Part shown: positions 4,512 to 39,479 of the stretch, in pieces
Numbering within the stretch: position 1 is the stretch's first letter
Layout of the letters: each line of letters starts with the position of its first letter
Source of the DNA: an uncultured Acidobacteriota bacterium
GTDB lineage: Bacteria > Acidobacteriota > Terriglobia > Acidiferrales > UBA7541
NCBI GenBank assembly: GCA_963788255.1
Contig: CAWBGC010000017.1
Coordinates: 1,050 to 65,049 of the forward strand
Length of the DNA stretch: 64,000 nt
Reading direction: 5' to 3'
Position numbers and translations under genes: made by a program
Notes under the pieces: model-generated
The model's input: only the letters and a program-made list of their open reading frames with translations
The model's database searches: none
Told to the model about the DNA's origin: nothing

Positions 4512-5069
4512 TCAGGGATTCTCTGGGGAAAGCTTGAAGGAGCCGAAGAACCTCTGCGTGTCCGCATCGTCTTCTTCCGCGGGACGGGCGACAGCGAGTA
4601 TGTAGAGCCGCCGGCCGATGATGAAGATCCTGCCCTCCATAAGGCCGTCGTCGCTGGTGGTGGACTTGAAGGTTTGTGTGTACTGACCGGCCGACTTAGA
4701 AGCCTGTGAGCTCAGCAATTTTCCATCAGCCTGATCAATGAGGCCGTCGCGGCTTCCAGCCATCGTCATCTGTGCATCCTCTTCGTCCGCAGGCGTGTAG
4801 CTGAGATCCCAGTAATCGCAGAAGAAGTAGGAGGTCGGGCTTTTCGCGGTCGCGAAATGAAAAGTAGTCGGAGGCTTGCCAGTTTCCGATACCGCATCAT
4901 GCTCCTCGAGATCCGGTTCGACGGGCATGAGAATGGTGAAACTGCCGTCCGGGGCGGAGAATTTAATCCACCCGGATCCAGGCGCCCAGGCGCGGTAACC
5001 GAGCAAGCCGACGATGCTAAGGAGGACCAGTCCCCCGACGGTCGCCGCGAATCGCGCAGGCTTTGCCAT
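4512..5069 (-). CDS. Hypothetical membrane-anchored or secreted protein
   Basis: A 185-aa ORF with an N-terminal anchor (MAKPARFAATVGGLVLLSIVGLLGY). I recognise no family. Confidence 0.55.
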   Translation of the reverse strand: MAKPARFAATVGGLVLLSIVGLLGYRAWAPGSGWIKFSAPDGSFTILMPVEPDLEEHDAVSETGKPPTTFHFATAKSPTSYFFCDYWDLSYTPADEEDAQMTMAGSRDGLIDQADGKLLSSQASKSAGQYTQTFKSTTSDDGLMEGRIFIIGRRLYILAVARPAEEDDADTQRFFGSFKLSPENP

Positions 5070-5206
5070 AAATCAATTGTATGGGACCGTGCCGCGGCCG
5101 GCGGTGCGGCGAGCGTAGTAGTTGACCAATCGGGAAACCGGGGCGGGCCGGTTGGAAGCGTCCGGACGGTGTAGGATAGCGGGTGCCGAATAGGAGTGAG
5201 GCACCG

Positions 5207-5596
5207 ATGAACGTGGACGACTTCCGACGGATTGCACTTAGCTTTGAGGGCGCCGAAGAGAGTTCGCACATGGGCCAGCCCGACTTCCGTGTGGGCGGCA
5301 GAATTTTTGCGACGCTGGCCTCCGCAAAGCAAGGCTACGGGAACTTGAGGCTCACACTGGAGCAGCAGGCGGCGTTCGTGGAAGAACTCCCGGAAGTCTT
5401 TCTTCCCATCGCGGGCGGCTGGGGACGCATGGGAATGACGCATATCCGGCTGGCCGCAGCGGGAGAGGATGTGTTGACCGGCGCACTGCACACGGCATGG
5501 AAGCTGCGCGTGGAGAAGAACGCAAAGTCGGGGCGGAAGAAGGGCGGCGCAATGAAGCGGATGCGTGCCGCGAAGACACGCCGCAAGAAGCGGTGA
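5207..5596 (+). CDS. MmcQ/YjbR-family protein with a basic C-terminal tail
   Basis: MNVDDFRRIALSFEGAEESSHMGQPDFRVGGRIFATL resembles the YjbR/MmcQ fold family. A GGAG lies about 10 nt upstream of the ATG at 5207. Confidence 0.55.
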   Translation: MNVDDFRRIALSFEGAEESSHMGQPDFRVGGRIFATLASAKQGYGNLRLTLEQQAAFVEELPEVFLPIAGGWGRMGMTHIRLAAAGEDVLTGALHTAWKLRVEKNAKSGRKKGGAMKRMRAAKTRRKKR

Positions 5597-33114: not shown

Positions 33115-33519
33115 ATGAAATTGCGAACCTATTTGAGTACTATAACTGGGGTACTGATGGGAGCTCGAGAAAACCCGATCTACCGCCGGCTGGCCATGCA
33201 ATCCCTTCATGACGAGCGCAGAAGGTTCCAGCGGATGCACCTCCAGGTCCCTCTGTTCATCCGCGGCAGGGACGCGCATGGTGAGCAGTTCCTGGAGCTC
33301 GCTAAGACCCTGGATATAAGTGGGTTAGGAGCGTTCCTGACCTGTCCCAGAGCCCTTGCTGTCAACGAGGTAGTCACGCTTACGATTCCGGCCCCCTCCA
33401 TCACCTCATCTGCCTTGATACCTGCGGGGATGCCGCCCATTCAGGCTCGCGTGAAGAGGCAACAAGAGGCCGGCGACGTCCACCTGGTCGGTGTTGAATT
33501 CCTCAAGCCCATCGGATAG
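33115..33519 (+). CDS. Single-domain PilZ protein
   Basis: RRRFQRMHL and LDISGLGAFL are PilZ motifs. The start is uncertain; Met codons at 33115, 33157 and 33196 are all possible. Confidence 0.75.
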   Translation: MKLRTYLSTITGVLMGARENPIYRRLAMQSLHDERRRFQRMHLQVPLFIRGRDAHGEQFLELAKTLDISGLGAFLTCPRALAVNEVVTLTIPAPSITSSALIPAGMPPIQARVKRQQEAGDVHLVGVEFLKPIG

Positions 33520-33709: not shown

Positions 33710-33775
33710 CTGGGTAAAGTACCCCGCAGGTGCCCCTGATTTCAGGGTCATATAGAATCTATTCGGAACCCATTG

Positions 33776-34990
33776 ATGCCCCAGTCCGGCGAAGTTTCTC
33801 AGCCGCAGCCCTCGGCCGAAGATTCCTTCCTCGATCTGTTGGTCGAGACCCTGGAAGGGCTTGACGAATCTGTCCGCGGACAGTTCCTGCGGCAATTCTT
33901 CCGCACGATCGCGCAAATCGATCTCACCGACGCGCAAAGCAACGAATACTGGAGCCGCATCCTTCAGCGCCGCAACGAGCTCACGGAAAGCCTCAAGAGA
34001 AAAATCTCGCTGAAGACGGCCATGCTGGACGTGCTGGCATCCACCAGCTTCCTTCGCGTTCCCATCCTCATGGAGTACGACGATTTCAAGAAGCTGCAAA
34101 TCAATGCAGCTACGGACGCGCTTACGGGGCTCTACAATCGCCGCCTCTTCGACGAATATTTCGACAAGGAAATGAACCGCGCCAAACGCTACGGCCAGCA
34201 CCTCGCCGTGGTGATTCTCGACCTGCACAAGCTGAAGGAAGTGAACGACCGCCGGGGCCACTTGCAGGGCGACCAGGTGCTGCAGCTTGCCGCCACCACG
34301 CTTCGCAAGACGCTCCGCGCTTCTGACTTCGCCTTTCGCATCGGCGGCGATGAATTCGCGCTGCTCCTGCCGCAGACCGACCCAGAACAGGCCGTCACTT
34401 TGTGCCGCCGCGTGCGCGCGCAGTACGAATCCGAAATCCGCCCGCTCAAGCTCGAAGTGGGCGTGACGCTCGATTTCGGCGTCGCCGTCCATCCGCAGGA
34501 TGGAGAGGAAAAGAGCGCCCTGATAGATTTGGCGGACAAGCGGCTATACGAATTGAAACTCGCCGGCCGCGCTTCCTCTCGTGTCATCGCGCTCGAACCG
34601 CCTGCCGCCCGCGAAGCCGCCGCGCCCGTCCCTCGAGAAATTGTTCCTCCCCGTGAAGCGCCGAAGCCCATCGCCGCCGTTCCGCCGGCCACCAGCGCCA
34701 TCCCACAGCCGGCGCCCTACGCTGAACAGCGGAAATGGGAAAGGGTTTCGCTTGTGGGTACGAAGGCCTACGCCATCCTCGGCGATGCCGCCCAGAAAAA
34801 CGCGCGCGTGATCGATCTCAGCTACGGCGGCGTCGCCGTCCTGCTCGACAAGCCCGAAGAGTTCCCCGAGCAGTTCAACGCCGTGCTGCACGTCCCGATT
34901 CTGCCGCCCGTGCGCGTGGTGCTGCGCAAGGCCTACGTTATGTTGACCGAAGGCGGGCGCACCCGCGTCGGCTGCTCGTTCGTTTCCTGA
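33776..34990 (+). CDS. Diguanylate cyclase (GGDEF with RxxD I-site) fused to a C-terminal PilZ domain
   Basis: The GGDEF active site is RIGGDEFALLL, with RASD five residues upstream (the I-site). After a Pro/Ala-rich linker, the PilZ motifs are QRKWERV and IDLSYGGVAV. Confidence 0.85.
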   Translation: MPQSGEVSQPQPSAEDSFLDLLVETLEGLDESVRGQFLRQFFRTIAQIDLTDAQSNEYWSRILQRRNELTESLKRKISLKTAMLDVLASTSFLRVPILMEYDDFKKLQINAATDALTGLYNRRLFDEYFDKEMNRAKRYGQHLAVVILDLHKLKEVNDRRGHLQGDQVLQLAATTLRKTLRASDFAFRIGGDEFALLLPQTDPEQAVTLCRRVRAQYESEIRPLKLEVGVTLDFGVAVHPQDGEEKSALIDLADKRLYELKLAGRASSRVIALEPPAAREAAAPVPREIVPPREAPKPIAAVPPATSAIPQPAPYAEQRKWERVSLVGTKAYAILGDAAQKNARVIDLSYGGVAVLLDKPEEFPEQFNAVLHVPILPPVRVVLRKAYVMLTEGGRTRVGCSFVS

Positions 34991-35630: not shown

Positions 35631-35687
35631 CTTGCCAAGAGCTGTCGTAGCACGTAAAACGGGACAGAGCGTGGACGCGTGCAAACC

Positions 35688-35918
35688 ATGAAGAAGATCA
35701 CGTTAAGACTCGACGCGGATGTTTTGCGGAAAGCTCGCATTCTGGCGGCCGAAGAAGGCACTTCGGTCAGCGGCTTGCTGGCCGCAAAGTTGGATGAATT
35801 GGTGCGACAGCGCAAGGGATACGACCGCTCGCGAAGGCGCGCCGTTGCGCGGCTCCGCAAAGGATTCGATCTCGGCTGGAGACGCCCTGGTTCACGCGAC
35901 GAACTTCATGAGCGATAG
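35688..35918 (+). CDS. Ribbon-helix-helix (CopG/VapB-like) antitoxin
   Basis: MKKITLRLDADVLRKARILAAEEGTSVSGLLAAKLDELV is a typical RHH beta-alpha-alpha motif. The stop overlaps the ATG of the downstream PIN remnant. Confidence 0.75.
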   Translation: MKKITLRLDADVLRKARILAAEEGTSVSGLLAAKLDELVRQRKGYDRSRRRAVARLRKGFDLGWRRPGSRDELHER

Positions 35919-36141
35919 GTTCTTCGTGGACACGAACATTCTGGTGTACGCACACGACCGGGCGGCAGGGGCGCGAAGGGTCGGACACGTTGTGCGGGAA
36001 GAGGGCGGACGCAAAAGGCGCGAAAACGTGGAAGACGTGTTTCGTGGGTTTGGGCTCGCTGCGGGCGGGGCGGTTTCACGGGGGGGCGAAATCCACTATC
36101 CCTCGAAAAGCGCAGGAGTGGTGCGCCAGCCTAAACTGTAG
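35908..36141 (+). pseudogene. Truncated PIN-domain (VapC) toxin remnant
   Basis: The first ~22 codons (MSDRFFVDTNILVYAHDRAAG) are a textbook PIN N-terminus. After about 35975 the frame runs into repeat copy B and encodes non-PIN, low-complexity sequence. The total is 77 aa, against about 130 aa for an intact VapC. Confidence 0.65.
35971..36060. repeat. Copy B of the module-shuffled direct repeat
   Basis: GAGGGCGGACGCA (36001-36013), AAAGGCGCG, CGTGGAAGACG (36027-36037) and ...TTTGGG are present. They are preceded by a degenerate extra copy (GAAGGGTCGGACACGTTGTGCGGG). Confidence 0.7.
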
Positions 36142-36817
36142 TCCATCGCCAGTTAGATCGGTAGATTACTCGGTTGTTCCACGTAACAGCCTCCCACATA
36201 TCTCTTCCATTCGTTGTTTTGACCGGGTCGAGCATTGCCTGAAAGACTTGAGGTGTGATGTATGTTGGATATGCGGGTGGAAGCGTCGCGAGTTTTGCCG
36301 CGTAATTCGCGGCACGGCCAACCCAGACGAGGTCGTTGGAGCCTCGGATGCCCGTTCTCGCCACAAATAGCTTGCTCGTGTCGATGCCGACGACGTGGCT
36401 TGGCGCGTAGGCCGTTTGTGGATATTGCTTTCGCAGGGCGGGAATAATGATCTCCTGTCTGGCGAAATTGATTTTCAATGCGCTTCGAACCGCCGCGGTG
36501 TTTTTGGCTCCTTCAATGTAGACCGCCATTATCCGATCGCCATCGTACGCAGTGATGACGCCGCCCTCGGAGGCTATGACCTTGGCCGCGCAGTGCAGGT
36601 AGGTCTTATAGATTTCGGCCGCAAACGTGTTCTTGTGTCCGTCAACTAGTCCTGTCGAATCGGCCATATCCGCGTATAGCACTGTCCCGTCGAGATTCAC
36701 GGCGTCGTTGGAGAGCTTGATGCTCTCGTCGTCAGGTACCACGTTTCCGTCGCGCTCTGTCCAGACACTTCTAAAGATGAGGGAAACTTCGCTCTGGAGG
36801 TCTTCTTTCAGGCCCAT
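36131..36817 (-). CDS. Class III nucleotidyl cyclase domain protein, Pycsar PycC-like
   Basis: The metal-binding Asp contexts are VLYADMADSTGL and AYDGDRIMAVY. The distal catalytic region is GIDTSKLFVARTGIRGSNDLVWVGRAANYAAKL. It is a single-domain 228-aa protein with a GGAG 6 nt upstream of the ATG at 36817. It is adjacent to a small TM protein. Confidence 0.7.
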   Translation of the reverse strand: MGLKEDLQSEVSLIFRSVWTERDGNVVPDDESIKLSNDAVNLDGTVLYADMADSTGLVDGHKNTFAAEIYKTYLHCAAKVIASEGGVITAYDGDRIMAVYIEGAKNTAAVRSALKINFARQEIIIPALRKQYPQTAYAPSHVVGIDTSKLFVARTGIRGSNDLVWVGRAANYAAKLATLPPAYPTYITPQVFQAMLDPVKTTNGRDMWEAVTWNNRVIYRSNWRWTTV

Positions 36818-36871
36818 GTGTGACTCCACTCCTTTGGTCTTGCGGGTAAACGGGTGCTGCTAACTGCCCCT

Positions 36872-36930
36872 CCCGAATATAGGAGTATAATCTCTTCGGA
36901 TTCGGGCAAGGAATGCTGAGTCGGGCAAGG
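36872..36930. promoter_or_regulatory. Shared divergent control region: TATAAT box inside a 7-bp inverted repeat, plus a 10-bp direct repeat
   Basis: CCCGAAT (36872-36878) and ATTCGGG (36900-36906) flank TATAAT (36886-36891). TCGGGCAAGG occurs at 36902-36911 and again at 36921-36930. Confidence 0.4.
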
Positions 36931-36961
36931 GTATGAACTGGCCGGACGGGTACAAGCTTTC

Positions 36962-37459
36962 GTGAACGAAGACGAGAAGGTTCGGATTGCTGAATTGAAC
37001 CTTAGCCGGCTCTTGGACTGGGTTGGTCGAATAGACGCGAAATCATCCGTCGTCCTAGGAATTAATACGGCGATGCTCGGAGTGCTGGCGGGATTGGCTC
37101 CGAGGTCGCGCATTTGGGAAGGAGGGACCATTCTATTGGCGGCGATTAGTCTGCTTTTTCAATCTGCGAGTCTATTTTGCGTTTACCTTGTGAACTATCC
37201 GCAGACGAAGGGGCCAGCAACGTCTCTCAATTTCTTTGGCGGGATCGCCAATCGTACTTTTCGGGAATACAACGCCGCATTCATGAAACTTTCCGGTTCG
37301 GATTACTTAAGTGATTTGCTGGAGCAGTGTCATCGCAACGCCGAAATAGTGAGCCGAAAGTTCTCTGCGTTGAAATGGGCCTACCGATTCTTGCTGGTTG
37401 GTGTCGTCCCTTGGGTGCTCTGCCTTTATTACTTTAGAGGTGTTACCCATTCGAGCTGA
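36962..37459 (+). CDS. Small 3-TM protein resembling the Pycsar effector family (PycTM/DUF5706-like)
   Basis: A 165-aa protein starting at GTG. The N-terminal helix ends in ...RIDAKSSVVLGINTAMLGVLAGLA (TM1). TM2 is TILLAAISLLFQSASLFCVYLV. A soluble segment follows with SLNFFGGIANRTFREY. TM3 is FLLVGVVPWVLCLYYF. The family assignment is from memory, not from a search. Confidence 0.55.
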   Translation: MNEDEKVRIAELNLSRLLDWVGRIDAKSSVVLGINTAMLGVLAGLAPRSRIWEGGTILLAAISLLFQSASLFCVYLVNYPQTKGPATSLNFFGGIANRTFREYNAAFMKLSGSDYLSDLLEQCHRNAEIVSRKFSALKWAYRFLLVGVVPWVLCLYYFRGVTHSS

Positions 37460-37597: not shown

Positions 37598-39082
37598 CTA
37601 CAGTTGCCCCAACGTGCGTTTTAATTCATCAAGAAGGCGTAATTGAGCGGCTGAGAAATCTGCGGGGCCGCATTCAGCCACGGACGGCTTGCCAACATAC
37701 TTTCTGAGTATCGATGCGCCGCGGCGTCGCTTCTTTGCGGCTTCACGCGCGTCGCCGTGATCTAGGTCGTGGCGCAGATGGTTCCGAAGGAACTTTACGT
37801 CCATTGCAAGAGGTGGGGGAGGGGATGGGAGCCGGTTGCAGTCTCCGGTCCCTTCGTAGACGATGAAATAAAGAGAATCGACGAGGTCGCCAAAATCCTT
37901 GCCGCTCCTGCAGACCGAAGCGAGCTTCTTAATCGCGCGCGCTGACTTGTTCGTCAGTTTGAACGTGTCTTCGCCCGTTTTCGAACTCGATCGCTCATTC
38001 ACAGCGTAGATCAGCGAGCTTATCTCCTCTGCCGTGTTATCGAGGGCGCTGGAGTTAGTGCCCGTGTTCGATTCTGCGCGAAGTACAGCATTAAAACCGG
38101 GGTCAAATGTGACCAGACGCTGGCTCAAAATGCTGAGCCGTTTGCCAATCGAGTCGCCACCTGTGGAACCGTAGCTGATTGCCTCCTGGTAGGCCAGGAG
38201 ATCTGTGTTGGTCGCCTGCGCTCCCTTTTCGACCTCTGTCGTGAGGTCCTCAAAGAACTTACGTATGAAAGCGCCGAATAGTGGGGCTGTCGCGCGTGGG
38301 ACATTGGCCTCAACGACTCTGGCGGCGAGCATGCATACTGAGAGGACACTCGCGCGGTTGCGTAGTTCAGCGGCTTCTTTGGGGAGTGCGAAGTCCAGGT
38401 ACCTAAGTGCAGATTTGATGCGCTTACCTATCGCGCTAGCGGAATCGAATGTTCGGTTGTCACGTAGGAATGCTTCAAGTTGCGAAAAACGCATTTGAGG
38501 CTGCACTCCCCGGGCCTCGATAAATAGCCACTTGGTGGCAATGTCGAAGTGCGCATACCTCGTGTCGCGGACTCCAATTTTTCTTCGAAAGTAGGGCTGG
38601 TCGGCAATCCAATGAGAGAAGTCGCGGGCCTCGCCCCCAAGGGCGTTGAGTTTCTCGGCCGTGGTGAGGGGCGTGCCAAGCTGGAGGCGGACAAAAAGGT
38701 CCTCAAGTTCGTCGTCCGTTGCGTCTTCGATTTCTTCGATATCGATTTCAAAATCATCGAAGGCGTCGGAGTAGTCTGGCTTTAGCTTGGGGTAGGTCGC
38801 ACCGCCGTACCTGCGGGCGACAGAGGATTCCAGAGTAAGCTTTCCGTCATAAAACTCGAATATTGCGGCCAGCCTTTGCTGGCCATCCACGCATTCGAAG
38901 GAACTTTCGTCGACTCTTCGAAAGTAGAATTTGGGAAGATGCCAGCCCTTCAGAATCGTGTCGATGAGCTTTCGTTTTTGCTCTTCCGTCCAAACCTCCT
39001 CTCGCTGGAAGTCTGGGGTGTCGATGCGGTCGCGGCGCTTATAAATCTTGTCGAGCGCACGGCGTCTTAGTTCCATCTTCAT
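37598..39082 (-). CDS. DUF262 (GmrSD N-terminal/ParB-like) domain protein with a HEPN-like C-terminal region and no DUF1524 nuclease domain
   Basis: The N-terminus has FQREEVWTEEQKRKLIDTILKGWHLPKFYF ... CVDGQQRLAAIFEF (the DGQQR motif). The C-terminus has FLRNHLRHDLDHG (R-x4-H). The start is uncertain (39082, 39076 or 39109). Confidence 0.7.
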   Translation of the reverse strand: MKMELRRRALDKIYKRRDRIDTPDFQREEVWTEEQKRKLIDTILKGWHLPKFYFRRVDESSFECVDGQQRLAAIFEFYDGKLTLESSVARRYGGATYPKLKPDYSDAFDDFEIDIEEIEDATDDELEDLFVRLQLGTPLTTAEKLNALGGEARDFSHWIADQPYFRRKIGVRDTRYAHFDIATKWLFIEARGVQPQMRFSQLEAFLRDNRTFDSASAIGKRIKSALRYLDFALPKEAAELRNRASVLSVCMLAARVVEANVPRATAPLFGAFIRKFFEDLTTEVEKGAQATNTDLLAYQEAISYGSTGGDSIGKRLSILSQRLVTFDPGFNAVLRAESNTGTNSSALDNTAEEISSLIYAVNERSSSKTGEDTFKLTNKSARAIKKLASVCRSGKDFGDLVDSLYFIVYEGTGDCNRLPSPPPPLAMDVKFLRNHLRHDLDHGDAREAAKKRRRGASILRKYVGKPSVAECGPADFSAAQLRLLDELKRTLGQL

Positions 39083-39479
39083 ACTGTTTTGAGGATAACA
39101 TAACTGCACCGTAAGCTATGAAACTGCAGCTCGATATTGAACGCCCTGGATTGGGGCGGGGGAGTGCGGCTGCCCCTTCCGAGACGAGCGTTCCTTTCCT
39201 TGCGTCATGGCGCGTTCGTCCGGTGCAGCTGACTCTGTGCAAGCAAGCGGGACAACGGCGGGGAAGGAGCCCCTCGACTTCGGTCGAGACACATTCGTTG
39301 GGTGCGGATTCGCAGCGTGAATCGTTTGCGGGGCTGGGGGAATCTAAGTGGGCGAGCCAAGGAAAATGCGGTATCATGAAAGTTTGGCGCTGGCCTAGCG
39401 ACGCGAGCGTGCCGAGCTACAACGATTCACGAGACGAAAGCGGCAATCGCGCAGACCGGCCGGCCGACAGGAGCCTCAC

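Follow-up and report, generated by a model that had tools for sequence, protein, structure and literature searches.

The cyclase and effector genes

The locus lies in a window of 64,000 nucleotides (the whole stretch of DNA that was analysed) from an uncultured Acidobacteriota bacterium and is made up of two genes that point away from each other. On the minus strand, pycC (36131-36817) codes for a 228-aa stand-alone Pycsar cyclase, BcPycC-like (clade B) and a predicted uridylate cyclase; on the plus strand, pycTM (36962-37459, GTG start) codes for a 165-aa Pycsar effector with three transmembrane (TM) segments, a member of the Pfam family PycTM (formerly DUF5706). The divergent start codons are separated by a spacer of 144 bp (36818-36961, read from the sequence). 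A preliminary description of the locus had proposed a Pycsar pair; all of the sequence features on which it drew were found again at the same positions, and the model searches given below agree with its assignment for both proteins.

The longest minus-strand open reading frame of the cyclase (36131-36829) begins with GTG and codes for 232 aa. [quoted passage not shown] The protein had been called minimal, but its length is ordinary for the clade, BcPycC having 229 aa.

Identification of the cyclase rested on PADLOC and the PDB. The PADLOC PycC model (PDLC00766) matched with E = 8.4e-96 over 231/232 model positions, and the closest solved structure was that of BcPycC (PDB 7R65; E = 4.9e-61, 52% identity over 222 columns), and this level of identity extends along the whole protein. 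It contains the strings YADMADSTG, YDGDRIMAVY, and GRAANYAAKL. The metal-binding aspartates D50 and D94, the same pair as in BcPycC, form an intact two-metal catalytic centre, and N171 and K175 occupy the transition-state Asn and Lys/Arg positions. Counted along the HMMER alignment, Y48, D92, and R95 correspond to the UTP-pocket residues Y50, D94, and R97 of BcPycC. The aspartate pair and the pocket triad are kept in 160-161 of 161 related cyclases, and together with N171 and K175 the conservation is 158-161/161.

A Pfam search with Guanylate_cyc, which the preliminary description had suggested as a check, did not recover the domain: there was no match to the cyclase at E <= 1 in Pfam, PF00211 included, and no meaningful match in NCBIfam. 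The likeness to class III cyclases is seen only in weak phmmer matches to the PDB, e.g., CyaB (3R5G, E = 9e-5). Among the relatives, P0118 has a precomputed match to PF00211.

The corresponding check of the neighbouring gene gave a clear result, with PF18967 (PycTM) scoring 51.6 bits against a gathering cut-off of 27.2, and the PADLOC PycTM and 2TM effector models matching with E = 1e-35 to 4e-43. Seven related genes begin at the same aligned codon as pycTM, with ATG. Hydrophobic segments on the Kyte-Doolittle scale at residues 28-47, 54-78, and 140-160 correspond to three TM segments. In an AlphaFold2 model built from 33 homologues (pLDDT 91), long helices are predicted at residues 3-45, 54-78, and 112-164; between helices lies a short, helical insert of about 35 residues, which contains SLNFFGGIANRTFREY. 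A Foldseek search of this model against a PDB library that does not yet include the EcPucTM structure returned only helical-bundle noise (best E = 0.5), no solved structure in it being similar.

Both proteins are thus full-length, intact members of their families, with the catalytic and pyrimidine-pocket residues of the cyclase preserved.

Gene order in related loci

We compared the locus with 160 others (L001-L160), 80 from species-representative genomes and 80 from metagenomes, whose cyclases are 55-76% identical to that of the window; PycTM homologues in them were located by an iterative HMM search of all open reading frames. PycTM lies upstream of the cyclase and co-directional with it in 62/160 loci, and a CNBD-TIR effector (PycTIR) is placed in the same way in 56/160. 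The cyclase comes first, followed by PycTM, in 5/160 loci; the two genes are divergent in 7/160 and convergent in 4/160; PycTM is distant in 1/160; and the flank is too short for a judgement in 25/160. Co-directional order is therefore the norm, as had been supposed: of the 134 pairs that are adjacent, 123 have it, 118 of them with the effector first.

An effector is present in every one of the 135 loci with enough flanking sequence, PycTM in 79 and PycTIR in 56. All 56 loci without PycTM have a co-directional upstream gene for a protein of about 302 aa, and these genes form one BLAST similarity cluster; the one representative scanned, from L001, is a CNBD-TIR protein (PF00027 + PF10137), that is, PycTIR. 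The PycC and PycTM families are adjacent in 78/135 related loci with enough flank; their pairing at the present locus is not due to chance. Two extra small genes adjoining pycTM in a further locus, L164, were tested and are not PycTM paralogues.

Two kinds of known system serve for comparison. The Pycsar system of Burkholderia cepacia LK29 combines BcPycC, a clade B enzyme associated with cUMP, with PycTIR, a CNBD-TIR protein, whereas at the present locus the role of effector falls to the three-TM PycTM, whose gene is on the strand opposite to that of the cyclase; the 56 surveyed PycTIR loci have their effector upstream and co-directional, in contrast to the inverted effector of the window. 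Canonical PycTM-PycC operons (e.g., L006, L013, L016, and L022) contain the same two families, likewise with the effector 5' of the cyclase, but in these 62 loci both genes run in one direction and touch or overlap, forming an operon, whereas in the window and seven relatives the effector is inverted and a spacer of 100-147 bp intervenes.

The divergent order, presented in the preliminary description as unusual, is real but not unique to this locus: 7 of the 78 adjacent PycC-PycTM pairs have it, and it is fixed in the whole subclade of the window. A neighbour-joining tree places the divergent cases at no fewer than four positions; the layout has arisen several times and is a recurrent minority one. 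The window groups with L081, L082, and L007, all divergent, and the same order is seen in the four nearest relatives in the database that sit on long contigs (P0004, P0011, P0016, and P0020; 71-80% identical). Within the subclade as a whole (62-80% identity), all 7 of the 7 other loci examined have this order, which the survey of orthologous loci thus shows to be conserved there.

The genes that flank the pair differ from locus to locus among these seven; in the four P loci they are a sigma factor and S16/RimM, YtxH and a helicase, HpaB, and Crp-like regulators. This indicates that the head-to-head pair is an inherited and mobile unit. Cyclase and effector genes are thus passed on together across genomic contexts that are unrelated. 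In divergent loci the effector is always on the 5' side of the cyclase, and a single inversion of the effector gene within a canonical operon accounts for the layout. We found no description of a divergent Pycsar layout in the searchable literature. Pycsar genes typically form an operon, a layout on which the detection models do not insist.

The shared spacer

The spacer holds three elements. A conserved -10-like box, AGTATAATC (36884-36892), reads TATAAT towards pycTM (36886-36891) and TATACT towards pycC. It is bracketed by a 7-bp inverted repeat, CCCGAAT/ATTCGGG (36872-36878 / 36900-36906), and a direct repeat, TCGGGCAAGG, occurs twice at 36902-36911 and 36921-36930. In 2000 dinucleotide-preserving shuffles of the spacer, a 10-nt exact direct repeat was unusual (reached in 0.7% of shuffles), TATAAT on either strand was mildly unusual (3.6%), and a 7-bp inverted repeat was at chance level (18%).

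We aligned the eight divergent spacers, that of the window and those of seven related loci (100-147 bp, n = 7). A single internal block stands out as well conserved: ATTATAC(T/C)C when read on the strand of the cyclase, or GAGTATAAT when read on that of pycTM. All 8/8 divergent loci have a TATACT-like hexamer 45-68 nt before the cyclase ATG; TATAAT is found in exact form 61-72 nt ahead of the pycTM start in 5/8, with near matches in the other three. The cyclase ATG is preceded by a GGAG-type ribosome-binding site. No consistent -35 element was seen across the eight spacers, and a generic sigma-70 promoter scan did not call the box, since there is no good -35 beside it. The box fits a -10 element on both strands. 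An Rfam scan of 35.5-39.6 kb gave nothing near gathering scores.

As the two genes stand head-to-head on opposite strands, effector and cyclase are not co-transcribed here as one operon. With the effector gene inverted and still 5' of the cyclase in this subclade, each gene would be transcribed from its own promoter in the shared spacer of 100-147 bp, organised around one conserved, near-palindromic -10-like box. Two back-to-back constitutive promoters would then replace the operon and its translational coupling, as the anatomy of the spacer suggests. In our view the divergent layout does not imply any new regulatory logic.

A stronger reading would be that inversion of the effector uncouples the expression of PycTM and PycC, so that the subclade sets or induces the effector:cyclase ratio independently; cyclase transcription might, for example, answer infection from a bidirectional promoter with one shared -10 box. 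This would be a layer of transcriptional control undescribed for Pycsar, and we consider it unlikely.

The preliminary description had suggested that the two genes may be regulated separately or by one operator-bound repressor. In a rival reading of this kind, a repressor would bind the repeats around the -10 box and control both genes, jointly or separately, which would likewise add a transcriptional layer to Pycsar. The low frequency of the direct repeat in shuffled spacers speaks for such a regulated variant, as does the presence, in 4/8 divergent spacers, of an inverted repeat beside or across the -10-like box; the sequences of these repeats are unrelated, and as a signal they are marginal. 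Against it, the inverted repeat of the window is what chance would give, and both CCCGAAT/ATTCGGG and the TCGGGCAAGG repeat are absent from 7/7 related divergent spacers, the latter being found only in this window and hence no conserved component of the system. Moreover, the four subclade P loci share no regulator gene next to the pair. Because the repeats are absent in relatives and a conserved regulator gene is lacking, a dedicated operator-bound repressor is unsupported, and we regard this reading as distinctly unlikely.

Predicted product, mechanism, and genomic surroundings

The structure 7R65 represents a clade B PycC from B. cepacia LK29, in which Y50, D94, and R97 are the UTP-recognition residues (PMC11224242), and the methods section of PMC9117128, citing Tal et al. 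2021, uses BcPycC to make cUMP. The preliminary description held that the product could not be deduced from sequence. This appears too pessimistic: since the three UTP-pocket residues of BcPycC are kept in the window cyclase, they point to cUMP, and 3',5'-cUMP can be predicted as the product with moderate confidence.

The alternative would be a purine cyclic nucleotide (cGMP or cAMP), made either by a Pucsar-like system or by a housekeeping signalling pair. Pucsar (PucC with PucTM or PucTIR; cGMP) is a sister branch that also combines a stand-alone cyclase with a three-TM effector, of the pJV1-spdB3 family (bioRxiv 10.64898/2026.08.12.744502), and the window cyclase has weak matches to adenylate cyclases in the PDB (E = 1e-4 to 0.08). 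However, its best matches by far are the PycC models and BcPycC, and the effectors of all 135 related loci with enough flank belong to the two Pycsar types, PycTM and PycTIR. The pocket speaks in the same direction: the Tyr/Asp/Arg triad of BcPycC, described in the same preprint as sterically excluding guanine, is retained in full and is nearly invariant in the clade, so that a restrictive pyrimidine pocket (Y48/D92/R95) stands in contrast to the guanine-compatible pocket reported for Pucsar cyclases (bioRxiv 10.64898/2026.08.12.744502). A purine product is accordingly very unlikely.

We conclude that the locus is very probably a two-gene Pycsar abortive-infection system with a BcPycC-like (clade B) cyclase and a PycTM effector. 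It possesses each sequence-testable hallmark of Pycsar with the exception of the operon layout, which is typical but non-defining.

By extension from experiments on homologues, phage infection would lead a PycC homodimer to cyclise UTP to 3',5'-cUMP, which would bind and activate the three-TM PycTM. The effector is probably an oligomer, by analogy with EcPucTM, a hexameric channel (bioRxiv 10.64898/2026.08.12.744502) and at present the best structural model for PycTM; the pore model is thus drawn from a preprint on a related effector. Activated PycTM would compromise the membrane, and the infected cell would stop growing or die before phage release. Product, trigger, and phenotype of the pair are in this scheme extrapolated from homologues at most 52% identical.

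The region 36.1-39.1 kb has a GC content of 50-57%, compared with 58-68% in the flanks, which fits horizontal acquisition. To the left of the pair lies an intact gene for an RHH antitoxin (35679-35918). Next comes a PIN/VapC-like start (MSDRFFVDTNILVYAHD...), which has no PIN character left past about 24 residues and whose frame terminates 10 nt within the 3' end of the cyclase gene; we infer that the pair may have been inserted into vapC. In a search for an island-free relative, no sequence identical to the antitoxin or the L31 protein of the flanks was on record. A tRNA scan of the whole window found none, and hence there is no obvious integration site.

To the right, on the minus strand, lies a DUF262/GmrSD_N gene (37598-39109), followed by rpmE and a ThyX-type gene. 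The preliminary description had suggested that this gene acts together with the pair. That Pycsar and the DUF262 gene form one three-gene defence system is highly improbable and close to refuted by the context survey: the gene adjoins the pair in the same low-GC block and its N-terminal domain matches defence models (PADLOC NsnA among them, E = 4e-30), but no DUF262 homologue occurs in the other 160 related Pycsar loci scanned, nor by Pfam in the four subclade P loci, its close homologues (79-82% identical) stand in unrelated contexts without a Pycsar system, and the protein is a member of a separate family that is large and well conserved over its full length (754 matches). We treat it as an independent neighbour that makes up, together with the pair, a mini defence island. 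Menshen (NsnABC) was considered for this gene and rejected, as the match to NsnA is confined to the N-terminal ParB/DUF262 domain (residues 8-217) and the NsnB and NsnC partners are absent, the neighbours being pycTM and rpmE.

The locus is thus a typical Pycsar system, unusual only in that its genes point away from each other, and adds an acidobacterial example to a well-characterised defence system; this finding alone opens no new mechanistic question. It does show that Pycsar need not be an operon, the head-to-head layout being stably inherited in one subclade, in this soil-bacterial lineage, and having independent origins elsewhere. Detection pipelines that are operon-based or strand-aware may miss divergent systems, and cloning of a "native operon" from such loci needs to take in the spacer that the genes share. 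On the source contig, the effector is annotated in the public record as a truncated gene of 107 aa, and this could conceal the system from annotation.

Left edge of the island and the genes upstream

At the left edge of the low-GC block, an intact RHH antitoxin gene (35679–35918, + strand) is followed by a truncated VapC/PIN gene (35908–36141, + strand), the ORF of which has a PIN-like N-terminus (MSDRFFVDTNILVYAHD) and is degenerate beyond about 24 residues. This ORF overlaps the 3' end of the cyclase gene pycC, and its stop lies 10 nt inside. The truncated vapC, taken together with the GC dip spanning 36.1–39.1 kb of the window, suggests that vapC was the site into or beside which the Pycsar+DUF262 block was inserted. 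Upstream of the island and close to it, genes encode a stand-alone PilZ protein (33115–33519, + strand) and a GGDEF-PilZ fusion (33773–34990, + strand); these point to c-di-GMP signalling and seem not to be connected with the Pycsar system.

The DUF262 neighbour

The DUF262/GmrSD_N protein (37598–39109, − strand; about 494–503 aa) is uncharacterised and probably constitutes a single-gene defence. The PADLOC match to NsnA (Menshen) involves the N-terminal domain only, and neither NsnB nor NsnC is present beside the gene. No Pfam match was obtained for the C-terminal region of approximately 280 aa, within which we found an RNHLRH motif (Rx4H, HEPN-like). At full length, the protein falls into a large family with more than 50% identity across several phyla and with no characterised member.

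The effector: start codon and model matches

In the public annotation of the 66,981-nt source contig, the effector gene pycTM (36962–37459, + strand) is called with a length of just 107 aa (P0146); this call starts at the TTG codon for Leu59, and both the N-terminal helix and TM1 are missing from it. The GTG start and a length of 165 aa are supported by homologues and by the call in a second assembly (P0295).

PADLOC "Effector, 2TM" models outscored the PycTM-labelled models on this protein (E=3.7e-43 vs. E=1.8e-35). These 2TM models are part of the CBASS effector set, which implies that the PycTM and CBASS 2TM effector sets are overlapping or homologous.

Second cyclases in PycTIR-type loci

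In nine of the related loci of PycTIR type (L008, positions 4675–5349, and eight others), a second PycC-like cyclase gene lies directly downstream of the first, in agreement with the remark on "multiple cyclases" in the Pucsar preprint (bioRxiv 10.64898/2026.08.12.744502).
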